Position numbers and translations under genes: made by a program. A DNA stretch of 64,000 nt from Candidatus Melainabacteria bacterium RIFCSPHIGHO2_02_FULL_34_12. GTDB lineage: Bacteria; Cyanobacteriota; Vampirovibrionia; 2-02-FULL-35-15. The first letter of the stretch is position 1, and each line of letters starts with the position of its first letter. Below, one piece after another: positions 7,436-48,172 of the stretch. The notes under the pieces are model-generated. The model did not search any database, was not told the DNA's origin, and was given only the letters and a program-made list of their open reading frames with translations. Location: assembly GCA_001784555.1 (NCBI GenBank), contig MFRM01000006.1, positions 34,244 to 98,243 of the forward strand, given 5' to 3'.

Positions 7436-9129
7436 TATTTAATGGTTGGATCGAATCTTCCTGATTCTATGTTTATTCTTCTTAATTCTTGATTTAAATC
7501 TTGCATTTGTTTTAAGCCATCCAGCCTGTATTGAGGTGGATATGAATATTTAAAGTTTCTCCCGCTTGAATCTCCAGGTAGATTAATAAACTGATCATCT
7601 CCAGTAAATGCATTTGGATTGTGAGCAGTTAAGATGTCAGACAGTGGATGAAAAGTATATAAAGGTGGACTGTGTGCCATAGTTTCTATTAGCTTTAGCA
7701 TGTAGTCTGGAGTCATTTGATCTGGTGTATGGTCTATTCCGTAAATATCTGCCATATTTCTTTGTTCATCAGGTGATAGAGAACTATAATTTTGTGCTTC
7801 AAAAGGTATATTGTGCGTGGAAAATGCAAGTCCATTTAAAGAATCATATTTGCTGACACCAATAAATTTGCCAGGCTTTTTGTCAGCACTGTCTCCCGTA
7901 GTAGTACCTTTTCTGTAGAATCTTGGGATTATCATTCCAAGAACTCCTTGTGCTTTTAAAATTTTATTACATCTTAATTGTCCTGTGCCAAGATTTTCTG
8001 CCATTATTTTTAATCTTCCTCCACCGGCAGTAATATATCTAGAGGTAAGTTCTGTAAGTTGATCATCCCAGATTTTTTCATCTCCTTGTGGATCTTCTGG
8101 TATATATGCTCCTGTATTTGGCTCAGCATCATTATCAATTGCAAATATTCTTCCAAGTCCAAAAACATGATCTATTACTTCACCAGTTGCTACATCTGCT
8201 AAACAATCATGCCTTTGATTAATGTATTCAAATCCATCTTCTCTAACTCTTTCCCAGTTCATTATTGAATTGTCCCATTTTTGTCCGGCAGGGCCGAGTT
8301 TATCAGGTTTGCATCCTGCTTTTTTAGTAGAGTCAACATAACCACGATGACGTAAAACCCATGTATCTGCACTGTCTCTGGCAGGCAAAAAAGGAGTATC
8401 AATAAATATTTCAAAATTATTTCTTATAGCATGATCTTTAACTCTTGCTCCTTGCATAAAAAGTTGGTACTGAAGCCAGCTGTGAAATCCTATATCATCT
8501 GCATTTTTCCCTTTAAAGGTGTTTATTGCAGATGAGTCATATTCTGCTATTTTATTGTCTTTCCAATCCCAGTAGGCTCTGCTTTCATTAATTACTTTAT
8601 TTGCTCTGTATATTCCAAAGTCACCAATCCAATATTTTTTAGCACCTAAAAAATCTGCAAAGCCAGATGGGAGTTTTGGTGTAAGAGAATTATTAAAAAT
8701 TAATCTTGCTACATGTTCAATTCTGTTTGCTTTTCCGTATAAATCTTTTGATCCGTAAGGAAAATCATTTTCAATTCCGGTAATTTCTGATTCGTAAATT
8801 TTTAAAACCGCAGTAGGTACATCTACTAAGTCTCTTAGCGATAAAAATAAAGGCCACAGAGCAAATGAACTTTGTGCTACATATGGACTTTCTCCGTAAC
8901 CAGCAGGATTCAGTGGAGTTAAAATAAATCCTGCGTGTCCTGTTTCAATTGCCCAGTCTATAGCCGGGATTAGATCCAGAAGTTTTCCATTTTCAAAGCC
9001 TGGCAAAAATAACTGAATTAATGCTTTTCTTTGAGGGCCACTTGAACCGTCTTTTGCCCATGCTTGCTTTGCAGTGGAAGTTAATAAACTACCGTAATCA
9101 TATTTGCCTGGATGGTATTGAACTCGCAT
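7435..9129 (-). CDS. 4-alpha-glucanotransferase (amylomaltase, GH77)-like
   Basis: GFILTPLNPAGYGESPYVAQSSFALWPLFLSL resembles the GH77 LPLGPTGYGDSPY...SAFAGNPLLI block. 564 aa. Its stop overlaps the start of the upstream GH13 gene, suggesting one operon. Confidence 0.55.
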   Translation of the reverse strand: MRVQYHPGKYDYGSLLTSTAKQAWAKDGSSGPQRKALIQLFLPGFENGKLLDLIPAIDWAIETGHAGFILTPLNPAGYGESPYVAQSSFALWPLFLSLRDLVDVPTAVLKIYESEITGIENDFPYGSKDLYGKANRIEHVARLIFNNSLTPKLPSGFADFLGAKKYWIGDFGIYRANKVINESRAYWDWKDNKIAEYDSSAINTFKGKNADDIGFHSWLQYQLFMQGARVKDHAIRNNFEIFIDTPFLPARDSADTWVLRHRGYVDSTKKAGCKPDKLGPAGQKWDNSIMNWERVREDGFEYINQRHDCLADVATGEVIDHVFGLGRIFAIDNDAEPNTGAYIPEDPQGDEKIWDDQLTELTSRYITAGGGRLKIMAENLGTGQLRCNKILKAQGVLGMIIPRFYRKGTTTGDSADKKPGKFIGVSKYDSLNGLAFSTHNIPFEAQNYSSLSPDEQRNMADIYGIDHTPDQMTPDYMLKLIETMAHSPPLYTFHPLSDILTAHNPNAFTGDDQFINLPGDSSGRNFKYSYPPQYRLDGLKQMQDLNQELRRINIESGRFDPTIK

Positions 9130-9176
9130 GTAAAAAAATTATTTAGTTCTTAAATTAATTGAAACTATTCTACTTT

Positions 9177-9377
9177 GTGTTACGGATTTATGTCCATAAG
9201 TTTAATTTTCTCTGAACGTATAAAGCGCCTTCCCTTAAAATCGGCTATCACGGCAGCAAGCTACCGTGTGTTACGCGGATTTTATCCCTTCAGCACCGGT
9301 CGGCGCTGTTAAGGAAGGCGCTTTGATTTTGCTCGTTTATATCCCGGAAGCAAGCTTCCGGGTTTTACACTTCGCTC
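9177..9377. repeat. GC-rich composite repeat. Two roughly 91-bp degenerate tandem units, each starting GTGTTACG(C)GGATTTTATCC and ending in a 20-nt hairpin (cacggcagcaagctaccgtg; cccggaagcaagcttccggg). The two units are also joined by a long-range inverted repeat: aaagcgccttccctta (9222-9237) versus ttaaggaaggcgcttt (9309-9324).
   Basis: Read directly from the sequence. The GC content is far above the flanking AT-rich DNA. Located between the GH15 stop and the GH77 start. Confidence 0.5.
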
Positions 9378-9386
9378 AAATAAATA

Positions 9387-11111
9387 CTAAGCAGCTAATG
9401 CTTGGTTTGTAATTGATTCTCGTAATTGGATAGCTCTGGTAGCTTCAGACACCATAATGGCAAAAACACCATGTGCCATTTGAAGAGGGGAATTTGGATT
9501 TGGAAGCCATTCTTCTCTCTCACCATCTTCCTTTTTCCAGCGAGCTTCAGGAAGTACTCCGGCGGGAATTTTAACAGTACGTTTTTCCAATGGGTTTACA
9601 AAAAACTCAATCTCATAGTCATGTTTTGTAAGTTGTGAAAGGCTTCTTTTCATAAATCTGTCTGCCAGAAGAAAACTTTTTTCATCTTTTCCACCAGACT
9701 TCAAATATCTCCCGTAGAAATGAGCTGCAAGTATGGGATCAAAAAGTGTCCACTGAGCAGCTTTATGTCCAGGGTAAATAACTGACCACTTTCCTTGTCC
9801 GTTTGGATTTGAAGCAAAGTTTTCACCAAAAAAAGCATCCAGCTCATCAGGCATCCTTCTTATACCGTATTCTCCCATATTTTCAATAAGTCTTTGAACA
9901 ATTGCATCCTGTTGTGCTTCATTTAAACCAGGATCAAATAAAAGTGAAAATGCAAGTGCGCTGTCACATGGTATTTCATTAGTTTCAACAGCAGGACTTC
10001 CGTCTAATGGGATTCTTTCATTTTTTATAGCATCACCCTTTTCAATTGCATCATCTATAATTTGTTTTAAATTAACATTTGGATTAACAGTAATAGTTTC
10101 ATTTGGATTCCAGCCTTTACTTTCAAAATATTGTTTAGCTTCCTTAAAAGCAGCTAGGCAGAGACTTACGCTGGAAGCTCTTTTTTTGCCTGTTTTGTAT
10201 TCCCATGGACCAATATCTGTTACATCCTCATATCCGATTTCATGGAGAAAATGCAAAGCTACTGAAAAAAGAGAATCATGACCATTTTCAGAATTTTGTC
10301 CGGTAAGAATACTATCCAGTTCTTTTAAGTCAATAATCCCTTGATTTGCAGCAAAAAAGAATGCATATAAATAAGCTCCTAAGCTATCAAGCTGATGATG
10401 TCCCCAATCCTTATATTCACCAAGTTTGCCATCAATAATGGATTGTTTAGCTCTTGGAAGCCCATTTATATCGCTTTCAAATTTTTCCTTTGCAAGTCTT
10501 TTATTTTCATTTGGATCAGGATTTAAAAACAAGAAAGATGTGAAATGCCCTCTTTGAAATGGATCATTGTCATAACTAGCCATAGCAATAAGTTCATCTT
10601 TTACTTTCTGAACAAGTTCTTCACGATCCTCAGAGCCTTCTGGCTCAAGAAGAGCAGCAAGTGTCATTCCGACAGTCATAATGGCATTGTCTCTTCGCCA
10701 TGAACTGTTACTGTATTCACTGGCTGCATTTGGGGAAGCTGGAATAGCACCGCTTTCATAAACTGTTAGATCCACGGTTCTTTCTATGGTTTCCAATATT
10801 TCATCAAGTTCAGCTGAGGTTGAAATTGGATCTGATTTTGTAATATGTTGATGCAACCAGTGTCCTTCAACTAACTCACTAGCTATTGGAATTTGCTCTG
10901 GCGTGATTAATTTAGCTGAATTAAAAATAGTCGAAGTCACCCATGCAGGTGTTGTACAGAGATTGTTTACTGGAAAGCTAGCTGTAAATCTTGGGACTGC
11001 GAAACAACCATTATTTGTTCTTCTATTATTGGTAATTGCACCTCTTGCTGTTCTAAGCAAAGGAACTCTTCTTATTCCACTGGTTATTAATGATGCTACT
11101 TCTGTTACCAT
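9387..11111 (-). CDS. Glycoside hydrolase family 15-like (glucoamylase / glucodextranase / GH15 trehalase)
   Basis: YSNSSWRRDNAIM matches the GH15 W-x-R-D-x-A block. DIGPWEYKTG matches the GH15 catalytic WEE region. The size fits an (alpha/alpha)6 barrel. The true start is probably downstream of the first Met. Confidence 0.5.
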   Translation of the reverse strand: MVTEVASLITSGIRRVPLLRTARGAITNNRRTNNGCFAVPRFTASFPVNNLCTTPAWVTSTIFNSAKLITPEQIPIASELVEGHWLHQHITKSDPISTSAELDEILETIERTVDLTVYESGAIPASPNAASEYSNSSWRRDNAIMTVGMTLAALLEPEGSEDREELVQKVKDELIAMASYDNDPFQRGHFTSFLFLNPDPNENKRLAKEKFESDINGLPRAKQSIIDGKLGEYKDWGHHQLDSLGAYLYAFFFAANQGIIDLKELDSILTGQNSENGHDSLFSVALHFLHEIGYEDVTDIGPWEYKTGKKRASSVSLCLAAFKEAKQYFESKGWNPNETITVNPNVNLKQIIDDAIEKGDAIKNERIPLDGSPAVETNEIPCDSALAFSLLFDPGLNEAQQDAIVQRLIENMGEYGIRRMPDELDAFFGENFASNPNGQGKWSVIYPGHKAAQWTLFDPILAAHFYGRYLKSGGKDEKSFLLADRFMKRSLSQLTKHDYEIEFFVNPLEKRTVKIPAGVLPEARWKKEDGEREEWLPNPNSPLQMAHGVFAIMVSEATRAIQLRESITNQALAA

Positions 11112-22512: not shown

Positions 22513-23175
22513 TTACTTTTTTCTTTTTCCTGTAATTGCGTAATTAACAAGCAGCCCTATTTTTGCTGCATGGTCAGCAGCACGTTCGAAACTCTGTGCA
22601 ATAAAAAATAATTTTGAAAGACTGTCTACTTTTGACTCAGGAGCACCTTTAATTAAATTAATTATTTTACTGATAGCTAGTTTATAAATTGTGTCTACCT
22701 GATCATCCATTTCAGCTATTTCATTTGTTTTTTCTCCAAACATATCTCTGTAAGCATCTATGGACTCAGAAAGCATTTTATTACCAAGCTTTGCCATGTT
22801 TATTATTTCCTGTGGCACTTCAATATCTGAAAGAGTTACTTTTTCAAGTAACCGTGCTGTTTTTTTAAAGTGATCGCCAATTCTTTCTAGGTTATCAGTA
22901 ACCTGCATAGAAACCATTATTTGTCTGAAATCTTTAGCTACTGGTTGTTGTAATACTATAAGTGCATCTCCGAAGTCATGAACCTGCCATCTGGCTTTAT
23001 CTATTTCTTTGTCCTTATTTTTAATTTTTAAGAAAAGTTCATTTACGTTTTCTTTATTTTGGAGGAATTCAAATAAAAGTTCTCCATTTGCTTTTACATT
23101 TTCAGCAAGATCTAAAACAAGTTGTTGAAGTTTAACCAGTTCGTCCTGGAAAGTTATTCGTACTGTTTGGGTCAT
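22513..23175 (-). CDS. PhoU-family phosphate-signalling regulatory protein
   Basis: Two PhoU repeats (ERIGDHFKKTA ... ERAADHAAKIG). I place the start at the internal ATG 23175 (MTQTVRITFQDEL). The track's upstream ATG at 23226 lies inside the terminal inverted repeat of a palindromic element. Confidence 0.75.
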   Translation of the reverse strand: MTQTVRITFQDELVKLQQLVLDLAENVKANGELLFEFLQNKENVNELFLKIKNKDKEIDKARWQVHDFGDALIVLQQPVAKDFRQIMVSMQVTDNLERIGDHFKKTARLLEKVTLSDIEVPQEIINMAKLGNKMLSESIDAYRDMFGEKTNEIAEMDDQVDTIYKLAISKIINLIKGAPESKVDSLSKLFFIAQSFERAADHAAKIGLLVNYAITGKRKK

Positions 23176-23220
23176 GGTTAGTATTTTACTATATTTTTGT
23201 ATATTAAACAAAACAGGATA

Positions 23221-23329
23221 TGTCATTGCGAGGAGGCACGAAGTGCCGACGCGGCAATCTCATAACGTAAACTTTCAATTATTTTGTAAGGAGATTGCCA
23301 CGCCTCACTTTGTTCGGCTCGCAATGACA
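23221..23329. repeat. GC-rich palindromic element, family copy 1. Terminal inverted repeat tgtcATTGCGAGg ... cTCGCAATgaca encloses the hairpin ggcacgaagtgcc and the internal inverted repeat cgcggcaatctc / gagattgccacgc.
   Basis: Read from the sequence. It lies between the ugd stop and the PhoU-family start. It shares its termini and the GCAATCTC core with the 24726..24817 copy. Confidence 0.6.
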
Positions 23330-23336
23330 TGAAGAC

Positions 23337-24674
23337 TTACGAAACTCTGGACTTTAACTTAGCTGATGAAATTCCGATTCCTATATGGTTTAAGCCGTAA
23401 AGTTTTAATTTTTCCGGATCATAAATATTTCTGCCGTCAAAGACTACCTTATCCTTAAGGTTTGCCGCAAGCTTTTCAAAGTCAGGGCTTCTGAACTGCA
23501 GCCATTCAGTGCAGACCACAAGACCATTTGCTTCTTTTACTGACTCCATTTCATTATTTGCATATTCAATATTAGAAACATTTGCAAAATATTTTTTTGT
23601 ATTTTTTAATGCAATTGGATCATATAGTCTTAATCTGGCACCGGCTTTTTGTAAACCTTCTATTATTTTAATCGCTGGAGATTCTCTTATATCGTCAGTG
23701 CCTGCTTTAAAACTAGTACCCCAAATCGCAATTAGCTTATCCTTCATTTTGTCTTTCCCGAACCAGTTAACAATTTTATTTAAAAACCATTTTGATTGTT
23801 TTTCATTTACATTTTGTGCTGCCTGTGGAATTTCAAGACCTAAAGAGAGATTTTCTATTACATGATTTAAAGCATCTACATCCTTAGGAAGACATGAACC
23901 TCCATATCCAATTGATGGGTATAAAAACTGCCCACCAATTCTTGGATCGCTGATTATTCCTTCCCGGACCCTTCTTATATCTGCACCCACTGCATCACAT
24001 AAAATAGCTATTTCATTAATAAAAGAAACTTTAAGTGCAAGCATTGTATTACATGCATATTTAACAGTTTCAGCTGAAGTCGGATCCATTATTAAAATTG
24101 GATGACCGTTTCTGGTCAGATGTGAATATAAATCTTTCATCATTTCTGCAGCTTTAATTGTTTCTGTGCCGATTACTATTCGGTCCGGCTTCATGAAATC
24201 CTGAACTGCTGTTCCTTCTTTTAGAAATTCCGGATTTGAAACTACTTCAAAGTCAGAACTTAACTTACTGCTTAAATATTTTTTTACTTCTTGGTTAGTT
24301 CCAAGAGGAACGGTTGATTTTAATACAAATAGTTTATAACTTTTAATATGCGGTATAAGTGAATCAAGAGATTTATATACAGCACTTATGTCCGGCGTTC
24401 CATCTTTATTTGAAGGTGTTCCTACAGCAAGAAATATAAGGCTTACCTTGTCAATGTCAGGTCCTACTGTGTCCGTGAAACTTAATCTTCCTTCAATGCT
24501 GTTTTTTGATACCAGTTCTCTAAGTCCTGGTTCATAAATAGGCATCTGACCTTCTTTAAGGAGTTCAATTCTGTTTGAATCAATGTCTATTCCGATAACT
24601 TCATGTCCAAGTTCACTAAGACATGCTGCTGTAACAAGACCTACATAACCTAAACCAATTGTTGCAATTTTCAT
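23337..24674 (-). CDS. ugd: UDP-glucose 6-dehydrogenase
   Basis: N-terminal Rossmann fold MKIATIGLGYVGLVTAACL and the catalytic-Cys block GGSCLPKD. Confidence 0.9.
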   Translation of the reverse strand: MKIATIGLGYVGLVTAACLSELGHEVIGIDIDSNRIELLKEGQMPIYEPGLRELVSKNSIEGRLSFTDTVGPDIDKVSLIFLAVGTPSNKDGTPDISAVYKSLDSLIPHIKSYKLFVLKSTVPLGTNQEVKKYLSSKLSSDFEVVSNPEFLKEGTAVQDFMKPDRIVIGTETIKAAEMMKDLYSHLTRNGHPILIMDPTSAETVKYACNTMLALKVSFINEIAILCDAVGADIRRVREGIISDPRIGGQFLYPSIGYGGSCLPKDVDALNHVIENLSLGLEIPQAAQNVNEKQSKWFLNKIVNWFGKDKMKDKLIAIWGTSFKAGTDDIRESPAIKIIEGLQKAGARLRLYDPIALKNTKKYFANVSNIEYANNEMESVKEANGLVVCTEWLQFRSPDFEKLAANLKDKVVFDGRNIYDPEKLKLYGLNHIGIGISSAKLKSRVS

Positions 24675-24725
24675 TAGAGATTCCTCGTATATCTACAAAT
24701 GAAAATATAGCACAATTATTTTAAT

Positions 24726-24817
24726 ATTGCGAGGGCTTTAGCCCGAAGCAATCTCGTCATATTCTCGTGTAGCATTCGGGATTGCTTCGTCGTCCGCCAA
24801 GGCGGACTTCTCGCAAT
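24726..24817. repeat. GC-rich palindromic element, family copy 2. Terminal inverted repeat ATTGCGAGG ... CTCGCAAT encloses hairpins gggctttagccc and tccgccaaggcgga and the internal inverted repeat cgaagcaatctcg / cgggattgcttcg.
   Basis: Read from the sequence. Between the transaldolase stop, which overlaps the right terminal repeat, and the ugd start. Confidence 0.6.
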
Positions 24818-25557
24818 TAAATCTTTTGCTTTTCTGTTCCTACAATTTTAAAGCCGGATTTAGAAGCATCATTATAAAACATTTTTACTGTATCAAGTGA
24901 AAGCTCTTTAAGATCTTTGCCAACTCCTGCAAGTTTTTTTAAAATCTCATAGGTAACTGTAATAATTTGACAACCTGTTTCTTCTGCCTCAAAGATATTT
25001 AAAAGCTCTCTTGAACTTGCCCATAAAAGATCTGTTTTTGAAAGAGGTTTTAATATTTTTGCAGATTCAATCATGTATGGCTTTGGATCACGTCCTGTAT
25101 CTGCAATTCTTCCTGCAAATACAGAAACAATATTATAGGTATTAGGATTTAGAACTTCACTCACTGCTTTTACCTGTTCGACAGTTAAGATAGCTGTAAT
25201 ATTTAATGAAAGCCCGCTTTGTGAAAGTTTTTTTATAAGTGGAACGGATGATTCCTGTCTGGTGTTTGTAATTGGTATTTTAACGTTTACATTTTTCCCC
25301 CATGAAGCAATAATTTTTGCCTGACGCTCCATATCATCAAATTCATCTGAAAAAACTTCAAATGATATCGGTCTATCCGGAATATTTTTTAAAACATCAT
25401 GAGCAAAAGCTTCATAGTCTGTGATTCCATTTTTGTTCATTAAAGTTGGATTTGTAGTAAAACCTTTTACTATAGAACCCTTCTGGGCTTCAATCATTGA
25501 TTTAATGTCTGCACCGTCAGCAAATATTTTAATTTTTAAATCTTTAACTTGTGGCAT
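24817..25557 (-). CDS. tal: Transaldolase (short Fsa/Tal-type)
   Basis: IFADGADIKSMIE...VKGFTTNPTLM is the transaldolase family signature. Confidence 0.8.
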   Translation of the reverse strand: MPQVKDLKIKIFADGADIKSMIEAQKGSIVKGFTTNPTLMNKNGITDYEAFAHDVLKNIPDRPISFEVFSDEFDDMERQAKIIASWGKNVNVKIPITNTRQESSVPLIKKLSQSGLSLNITAILTVEQVKAVSEVLNPNTYNIVSVFAGRIADTGRDPKPYMIESAKILKPLSKTDLLWASSRELLNIFEAEETGCQIITVTYEILKKLAGVGKDLKELSLDTVKMFYNDASKSGFKIVGTEKQKI

Positions 25558-48007: not shown

Positions 48008-48172
48008 TATTATTGCGCCCGAGCGAAAAACTCGGGAGCTTGCTCCCGGAGATGTGAGCGAGTAGCAACAAAACGCCTCCTTACTAACGCCTCCTGATGC
48101 CCATGGCTCAAATCGGCGAAAAACTCTGTGAGCTTGCTCCAGAGATAGTCGATTTGAAGGGAGGCGTTTTAT
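48008..48172. repeat. GC-rich repeat/palindrome island in the divergent promoter region. It contains hairpins cccgag-cgaaaaa-ctcggg and gggagcttgctccc, a direct repeat GCGAAAAACTC(g/t)G(g/t)GAGCTTGCTCC x2 (48023-48046 and 48117-48140), and a long-range inverted repeat caaaacgcctcc (48069-80) / ggaggcgtttt (48159-70).
   Basis: Read from the sequence. It begins with tATTGCGccc, reminiscent of the ATTGCGAGG element termini. It overlaps the spurious track ORF 47999..48187. Confidence 0.5.

Follow-up and report, generated by a model that had tools for sequence, protein, structure and literature searches.

Probable gene-less dimers of an Ssn-associated, tagged hairpin repeat in a Melainabacteria genome

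SsnA is a small GIY-YIG nuclease that binds and cuts the Neisseria repeat NTS (CGTCATTCCCGCGMAVGCGGGAATCYRG) in single-stranded DNA, and its gene is flanked by NTS repeats. Within NTS, the C after the palindrome weighs most for binding, and the three upstream bases weigh most for cleavage (Chenal 2025, PMC11893778). The CGTC-tagged repetitive extragenic palindromic (REP) sequences have a tag, CGTC or TGTC, that stays unpaired, a stem whose first pairs are A-T and T-A, and a short tail; they mostly form head-to-head dimers with the tags outside and spacers of 20–100 bp, heterodimers being frequent, and they are located at most 20 bp from the 3' end of the preceding open reading frame (ORF) or sometimes in frame inside genes, with no dedicated transposase (Di Nocera 2013, PMC3733652). 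In this study, two GC-rich palindromic elements, E1 and E2, were analyzed in a 64,000-nucleotide stretch of the genome of Candidatus Melainabacteria bacterium RIFCSPHIGHO2_02_FULL_34_12 (contig MFRM01000006.1, positions 34,244 to 98,243), hereafter the window. E1 and E2 are likely to be non-autonomous, gene-less dimers of a tagged, Ssn-associated hairpin repeat.

Architecture and insertion of E1 and E2

The two elements shared one order of boxes, namely, ATTGCGAG, a variable GC hairpin, GCAATC(TC), an AT-rich spacer of 22–33 nt, (GA)GATTGC, a second variable segment, and CTCGCAAT; the coordinates are given in Table 1. In the case of E1, the ends were formed by TGTC followed by ATTGCGAG (23225–23232) and by CTCGCAAT (23318–23325) followed by GACA, which make a perfect 12-bp terminal inverted repeat. 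The inner boxes were GCAATCTC/GAGATTGC in E1 and GCAATCTC/GGGATTGC in E2. The C after the palindrome was present in E2 and in both halves of E1, and GTC preceded the palindrome in both E1 halves and in neither E2 half. The box ATTGCGAG was counted four times in the window, always at the ends of E1 and E2, compared with a shuffle expectation of 1.0; four or more occurrences were reached in 0 of 100 shuffles. The GC content was 48% in E1 and 53% in E2 versus 34% in the window, and both elements folded far more stably than shuffles on both strands (z = −5.6 to −8.3). When isolated half-units were folded as DNA, −7.3 kcal/mol was obtained for the left half of E1, in which the ATTGC/GCAAT stem was formed, and −4.2, −6.1, and −8.1 kcal/mol for E1 right, E2 left, and E2 right, respectively. 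Further degenerate copies were looked for within the window, and none was found. These results bear out a sequence-only reading of the window, in which E1 and E2 had been assigned to one family from their terminal inverted repeat, inner boxes, and left-end hairpin, and had been described as GC-rich islands in AT-rich DNA. The placement of E1 3' of ugd and of E2 3' of tal in a co-directional array was likewise correct, as the minus strand holds every flanking gene.

The ugd product of the window was 100% identical to that recorded for Candidatus Melainabacteria bacterium RIFCSPHIGHO2_02_FULL. To compare the locus with relatives, three loci with the gene order SIS–HAD–tal–ugd–PhoU were obtained via ugd homologues, with ugd identities of 82% (L259), 78% (L260), and 76% (L261). 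The tal-ugd gap is 142 bp in the window, 12 bp in L259, and 20 bp in L260, that of L261 not being comparable. The ugd-PhoU gap is 161 bp in the window, 23 bp in L259, and 24 bp in L261, and in L260 it is 231 bp with a different, decayed insert. E2 was absent from the tal-ugd gap of L259 and L260, and E1 was absent from the ugd-PhoU gap of L259 and L261. Because relatives with the same gene order have empty sites, E1 and E2 are lineage-specific insertions; conservation in the orthologous gaps of relatives, which the sequence-only reading had considered, was not found. On alignment of the junctions, E2 lay directly at the tal stop codon and E1 lay 7 nt past the ugd stop.

Two further observations concern the same gaps. 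The insert in the ugd-PhoU gap of L260 (3255–3480) is a different, apparently decayed tagged sequence, GTCATTACGAG ... ACGTAATCTC, with the stem ATTACG/CGTAAT, which suggests that this gap has been used repeatedly. Between E2 and the start of ugd (24675–24725), the window holds about 40 nt of extra AT-rich sequence (attaaaataattgtgctatattttcatttgtagatatac), to which nothing corresponds in the closest relative, whose gap is 12 bp; this stretch may have come with the insertion, or it may supply a new promoter.

Further copies, which the sequence-only reading had expected elsewhere, were found at two more loci in the same genome beyond the window and at hundreds of other loci. Outside the window but close to its start, the same contig carries a dimer 7 nt past the trpF stop (L267, 11635–11724) and a dimer with an extra half 8 nt past the purD stop (L267, 18414–18650). 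Thus, four loci were counted in approximately 84 kb of genome, each 0–8 nt past a stop codon and in co-directional gene arrays. The elements were carried by 6 of 6 metagenome contigs of the same species, three of which end inside E1. As these three contigs (L004, L005, and L006) are independent, E1 evidently breaks short-read assemblies. In another Melainabacteria metagenome-assembled genome (MAG), L168, a dimer was found at a non-orthologous locus, and one half (2893–2925) equals the right half of E1 with 1 mismatch.

The half-unit, its distribution, and a small GIY-YIG gene

The repeated unit is the half-element rather than the whole element, because halves also occur singly and in tandem direct arrays. 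The unit is approximately 25–40 nt long and consists of the tag YGTC, the palindrome ATTGC-GAG-(variable distal hairpin)-CGAA-GCAAT, and the tail C-Y-C. A dimer is formed by two inverted units with the tags outward and a spacer between them. Among 563 half-units, position −4 was C or T in 94%, and the following bases were G in 96%, T in 95%, and C in 97%; after GCAATC, C or T was found in 98% and then C in 82%. The tag and tail bases lie outside the search pattern. Among 169 units at loci found via protein only, the C after the palindrome was present in 156 (92%) and GTC before the palindrome in 160.

In single-stranded DNA, the unit is predicted to form a hairpin in which ATTGC pairs with GCAAT over 5 bp, with an internal loop rich in purines and a distal stem-loop that varies between units. 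The interior measures 7–45 nt, with the recurrent short forms GNACGAA, CGNAGCGAA, and GAGCGNAGCGACGAA and longer forms with a distal hairpin. When 319 distinct units were folded alone, the ATTGC/GCAAT stem was part of the minimum-energy DNA fold in 270, and the interiors were more stably folded than shuffles (p = 9e-24). In the case of 150 distinct dimers, 133 were heterodimers with unlike halves, and the median spacer and length were 28 nt and 85 bp, respectively. Tandem direct arrays of half-units were also present, for example, four copies with a 41-bp period in L044. Arrays of this kind, with periods of 41–46 bp and followed by one inverted unit, were seen at L044 695–890, L016 6432–6595, L254, and L217 and resemble the clusters of bacterial interspersed mosaic elements (BIMEs). 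About 20 half-units were seen within 18 kb of the viral contig IMGVR_UViG_3300022552_000049. Read-through of the elements yields the peptides VIASEAKQS, ...LAMT, and ...RNDG in spurious ORFs.

The distribution of the family was determined with a search pattern of three boxes and 24 specified bases. This pattern matched 52 IMG/VR contigs and at least 120 stretches in a one-genome-per-species collection; viral contigs and members of more than 15 bacterial phyla had the boxes in unchanged form. Carriers among the matches listed included Chloroflexota, Patescibacteria, Alpha-, Gamma-, and Deltaproteobacteria, Bacteroidota (Mucilaginibacter, Flavobacterium, and Pedobacter), Ignavibacteriota, Elusimicrobia, Zixibacteria, Planctomycetota, Atribacterota, Acidobacteriota, Methylomirabilis, Firmicutes, the cyanobacterium Trichocoleus, and another Melainabacteria MAG. 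The ATTGC boxes were identical in genomes of 34% to 67% GC. A full-text literature search for the sequence strings and the derived peptides returned primer coincidences only. At one site in a phage portal gene, an element-derived in-frame insert was present in four homologues and absent from eight. These inserts were located in L009 (approximately 8700–8960 within the portal ORF at 7918–9504, minus strand), L053, L035, and L039 and are translated as ...VIASE..AKQSQGIATSPRF.GA.RNDR.... In addition, a complete dimer was seen in L124 (CAVYIJ010000001.1), a MAG labelled 'uncultured Halobacteria archaeon', which is either a binning error or the sole archaeal occurrence seen.

A candidate partner gene was found with a relaxed GIY-YIG regular expression, which located a 98-aa GIY-YIG ORF 70 bp from a half-unit in L119. 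The homologues of this ORF were all single-domain GIY-YIG proteins of approximately 96–105 aa from many phyla, and a protein profile built from them was the sole basis on which 80 metagenome loci were chosen. An exact unit was found within 300 bp of the gene at 47 of the 80 loci and on both sides at 30; at 22 loci, a left unit stood upstream and a right unit downstream. The unit density was 2.51 per kb near the gene versus 0.115 per kb at distances above 1 kb, which corresponds to a 22-fold difference (Poisson p ~1e-107). A generic hairpin, defined as YGTC, a 5-nt stem, its complement, and C, was found near the gene at 69 of 80 loci, with the stem ATTGC at 53. In genomes of 38–67% GC, the full-length layout was cGTC ATTGCGAG...GCAATC, 20–35 nt, a GIY-YIG gene of approximately 98 aa, 0–20 nt, and GATTGC...CTCGCAAT GAC. 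The spacer of E1 takes the position of the GIY-YIG gene in these full-length units. Accordingly, E1 and E2 were read as the gene-less form, because the full-length units hold the same layout with the gene in the spacer.

The GIY-YIG protein was 44–46% identical to N. gonorrhoeae ssnA over approximately 90% of its length. In a tblastn search of a plasmid collection that includes two N. gonorrhoeae chromosomes, the N. gonorrhoeae homologue was flanked by seven NTS repeats, four of them NTS and three its reverse complement. Homologues in other genera were flanked by variants of their own, namely, TGTC ATCCC GAGGAACGA GGGAT C in Spirosoma, TGTC ATTCT GAGTGAAACGA AGAAT CTC in Planktothrix, and CGTC GCCCCGTG CTTGA CACGGGGC in Novosphingobium aromaticivorans. 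When the protein was compared with NCBIfam and PDB, no specific family was found, with weak similarity only to the UPF0213 structures 1zg2 and 1ywl. On the Planktothrix agardhii plasmid p1 (L266, 17862–20116), a GIY-YIG gene and its arrays of tagged hairpins have an MmeI-type restriction-modification gene on one side and drmA of DISARM on the other, which places them inside a defence island.

Comparison with known repeats and rival explanations

The family is best filed as a new ATTGC sub-family of Ssn-associated, CGTC-tagged hairpin repeats within the REP/NTS-SRM superfamily, a recently described kind of element. It resembles NTS/SRM in its oriented hairpin with a (C/T)GTC-AT head and an AT-C tail, in the conserved GTC before and C after the palindrome, in the repeats on both sides of a single-domain GIY-YIG gene of approximately 95–105 aa, and in its many gene-less intergenic copies. 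The conserved GTC and trailing C coincide with the positions critical for binding and cleavage by SsnA (PMC11893778). However, the ATTGC unit pairs ATTGC with GCAAT around an internal loop rich in purines and a distal hairpin that varies, whereas NTS has a continuous ATTCCCGCG stem. The ATTGC sub-family is also far wider than the taxa stressed in PMC11893778, as it includes Melainabacteria, Chloroflexota, Patescibacteria, and phage-like contigs. In the case of the CGTC-tagged REP superfamily, which includes Neisseria dRS3 and Rickettsia RPE-4/RPE-6, the likeness extends to the YGTC tag, the stem starting with AT, the short tail, the head-to-head heterodimers with outside tags and 20–100-bp spacers, the position just 3' of ORFs, the occasional in-frame copies, and the lack of a transposase. 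The peptides in the supplement of that work are VIPAKAGI, VIAGLDPAIH, and VIPWLDHGI, unlike those read from the ATTGC unit, and no sequence or peptide of the ATTGC family was found when the supplement was searched (PMC3733652).

Enzymes of the Ssn family bind hairpins of this type in single-stranded DNA and cleave beside the tag. According to the preferred explanation, each tagged half would fold into a hairpin in single-stranded DNA and be recognized by a nuclease of the Ssn type whose gene lies elsewhere in the genome. E1, with both tags intact, could be a substrate of such a nuclease, and E2, having lost both tags, is probably an inert relic. The copies would have spread by a nuclease-dependent single-stranded-DNA route. 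GIY-YIG enzymes are hydrolytic nucleases, not strand-transferases. Because they cut DNA and do not join it, repair or copying after a cut would be likelier than transposition in the strict sense.

Several results weigh against this explanation. No GIY-YIG homologue was encoded in the window or in about 20 kb beyond its ends (approximately 84 kb of genome), and at 33 of the 80 GIY-YIG loci the exact ATTGC unit was missing nearby, although most of these had a variant tagged hairpin. The published SRM search sequence, HGTCWYN(0-2)YYVSBRHN(0-5)WNVSBRGN(0-2)RNCYNB, matched 0 of 563 units and nothing on either strand of the window, whereas the NTS and NTSvar controls matched. CGTC-1 to CGTC-4 have an uninterrupted stem of 8–9 bp with a 4–5-nt loop, unlike the 5-bp stem and bulged 7–45-nt extension of the ATTGC unit. 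Furthermore, E2 has no GTC tag on either side, and no target-site duplication was visible at the junctions of E1 or E2 on alignment with the relatives.

A further step can be proposed only tentatively, namely, that the unit of approximately 400 bp made of a tagged hairpin, the GIY-YIG gene, and a second tagged hairpin is an autonomous mobile element that uses a hydrolytic single-strand-DNA nuclease rather than a transposase, with gene-less dimers such as E1 as its miniature derivatives. This is possible, and we regard it as doubtful. If it is true, the identity of the boxes across 34%–67% GC and more than 15 phyla, their presence in viral contigs, and the in-frame portal inserts would point to ongoing inter-phylum spread, possibly borne by phages; ancient vertical inheritance is the alternative to such spread.

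A primary function at the RNA level was also considered, in which cis-acting structured RNAs (intercistronic stabilisers, attenuators, processing sites, or small RNAs) were selected in the tal-ugd-phoU transcript. E1 and E2 fold very stably, they are probably transcribed since they lie in a co-directional array whose gene gaps are 12–24 bp in relatives, and four of four copies in the genome stand 0–8 nt past a stop codon. REPs of other bacteria have been reported to affect mRNA stability, and Liang, Rudd, and Deutscher are said to have found in 2015 a reduced translation of the upstream gene where a REP lies no more than about 15 nt from a stop codon. The hairpins, probably transcribed within the array, may alter mRNA stability or translation termination, which would be a side effect and not their raison d'être. 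As a primary role, however, the RNA function is unlikely. Close relatives lack the elements in the corresponding gaps, which shows that the operon can do without them, and the same sequence occurs beside unrelated genes of every kind. No Rfam match was found in the window at gathering thresholds, and a scan of 23150–24900 at E ≤ 10 gave chance-level matches only. Neither an intrinsic terminator nor a promoter was found above background at E1 or E2, and there was no terminator-like U tract. The features that are conserved show strand symmetry and agree with the determinants by which a DNA-binding nuclease is reported to recognize its target (PMC11893778). The family of small structured RNAs or attenuators offered by the sequence-only reading found no positive evidence. 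The conservation of an oriented GTC tag and of a C behind the palindrome, on either strand that bears the unit, fits what was reported for a protein that recognizes single-stranded DNA. Its other suggestion, REP/BIME- or MITE-like selfish palindromes (MITE, miniature inverted-repeat transposable element), held up on the empty sites in relatives and the extra copies in the genome, and it was sharpened to inverted dimers of a tagged hairpin unit.

Two transposase-based explanations were weighed alongside. REPINs are REP doublets mobilized in trans by RAYT, a Y1 HUH tyrosine transposase of the IS200/IS605 type. E1 and E2 share their architecture of two inverted hairpin units and a spacer that form a long hairpin, as well as the intergenic 3' sites and the lack of a target-site duplication; mosaics, tandem clusters, and a non-autonomous population served by a low-copy gene are further points in common with REPIN/RAYT or the E. 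coli REP/BIME systems. We consider this explanation very improbable, as the tag is YGTC, not the GTAG of RAYT-associated REPs, and Di Nocera et al. found no tyrosine transposase with CGTC-type units on its flanks (PMC3733652). The gene enclosed by the units encodes a GIY-YIG nuclease rather than a Y1 HUH transposase, and REPIN families are genus-specific, unlike the ATTGC boxes, which are the same in different phyla. Clustering of the ORFs near the elements at 172 loci revealed no recurrent transposase and grouped only related phage structural genes. Similarly, a Pfam scan of 150 ORFs adjoining gene-less elements found unrelated housekeeping families, with no family in more than three members and no transposase among the families listed. 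Classical MITEs, which derive by deletion from an insertion sequence with a DDE transposase and terminal inverted repeats, would account for the 8–12-bp terminal inverted repeats, the small size, the several genomic copies, and the insertion polymorphism. However, neither insertion shows the target-site duplication, no insertion sequence with such ends was found, and the protein encoded in the full-length form is a nuclease of 98 aa, not a transposase. It is also atypical of MITEs that the copies have only short boxes in common, that the interiors vary yet keep pairing, and that halves occur singly or in tandem direct arrays, and a MITE origin has next to no likelihood. An integron attC-like site, suggested by the four-box layout, was rejected because no GTTRRRY/RYYYAAC cores were present and the flanks are core metabolism genes in conserved order.

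Flanking genes, other structured islands, and significance

Table 1. Positions of the two elements, their parts, and the flanking genes in the window
Feature	Position	Strand	Description
Element E1	23221..23329	.	complete inverted ('head-to-head') dimer, TGTC/GACA tags at both ends
E1 left half-unit	23221..23261	+	TGTC 23221-23224; ATTGC GAG 23225-23232; distal hairpin GGCAC-GAA-GTGCC 23235-23247; GCAAT 23254-23258; C 23259; TC
E1 spacer	23262..23290	.	AT-rich, inner boxes GCAATCTC and GAGATTGC on either side
E1 right half-unit	23291..23329	-	minus-strand reading TGTC ATTGCGAG CCGAACAAAGTGAGGCGTG GCAATC TC; distal hairpin degraded
Element E2	24726..24817	.	inverted dimer without GTC tags: TTA, ATTGCGAG ... 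CTCGCAAT, ATT
E2 left half-unit	24726..24755	+	ATTGCGAG, distal hairpin GGC-TTTA-GCC, CGAA, GCAATC TC
E2 right half-unit	24778..24817	-	minus-strand reading ATTGCGAG AA GTCCGCC-TT-GGCGGAC GACGAA GCAATC CC
PhoU-family gene	22513..23175	-	true start at 23175, 220 aa, MTQTVR...
ugd (UDP-glucose 6-dehydrogenase)	23337..24674	-	E1 and E2 on its two sides
tal (transaldolase family)	24817..25557	-	stop codon overlaps E2 end

E1 lies between the ugd stop codon (23337–23339) and the true PhoU start, and base 24817 is common to E2 and the tal stop codon (24817–24819). A longer PhoU ORF of 237 aa reaches 23226, where its upstream in-frame ATG (23226–23224) is the CAT in the GTCAT tag of E1. In three relatives, the start of the PhoU orthologues matched the downstream ATG. 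The 237-aa ORF is therefore judged spurious, because its start lies inside E1 and the orthologues start downstream. The sequence-only reading had noted that the element supplies the upstream ATG, which was correct; it had also assumed a mis-called gene start, and this was absent from the public gene calls, in which the 220-aa start is already in use.

Two other structured regions of the window were compared with the family. The GC-rich island at 48008–48172 had been proposed as a third, more diverged member, but it has no GCAATC or CTCGCAAT boxes and gave no relaxed match. It is a separate structured island in the divergent gap between two FG-GAP genes, with two direct repeats of approximately 32 nt (GMGCGAAAAACTC..GAGCTTGCTCC..GAGAT) and an 18-nt inverted repeat. 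Its RNA fold reached −66.9 kcal/mol (z = −5.8), and no match was found in Rfam or viral contigs. At 63514–63660, and also at L168 2863–3013 and L268 15101, a 24-nt inverted repeat (GGGTGTGTAAAGTTTTCGAGGATA / TATCCTCGAATGTTTTACAGACCC) upstream of rph surrounds a GC-rich core. In the window, this core contains TTCAGAGC-GAG-GAACTCCGTGA-CGAA-GCTCTGAA, which shares the GAG...CGAA design of the ATTGC unit but differs in the stem and lacks the GTCAT tag. In L168, a true ATTGC dimer lies inside this inverted repeat.

These results bear on annotation, as the elements break contigs in MAGs, yield spurious small ORFs, and create false upstream starts such as that of PhoU. The published SRM search sequence misses the sequence type most often associated with this GIY-YIG clade, and genome counts of Ssn-associated repeats are thus probably underestimates. 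The clean empty sites in Melainabacteria and in the phage portal gene are direct evidence that the repeats are gained as discrete insertions, which bears on how they multiply without a transposase. If the link with the nuclease holds, the ATTGC sub-family would be a further recognition sequence for single-strand-specific DNA cutting enzymes.

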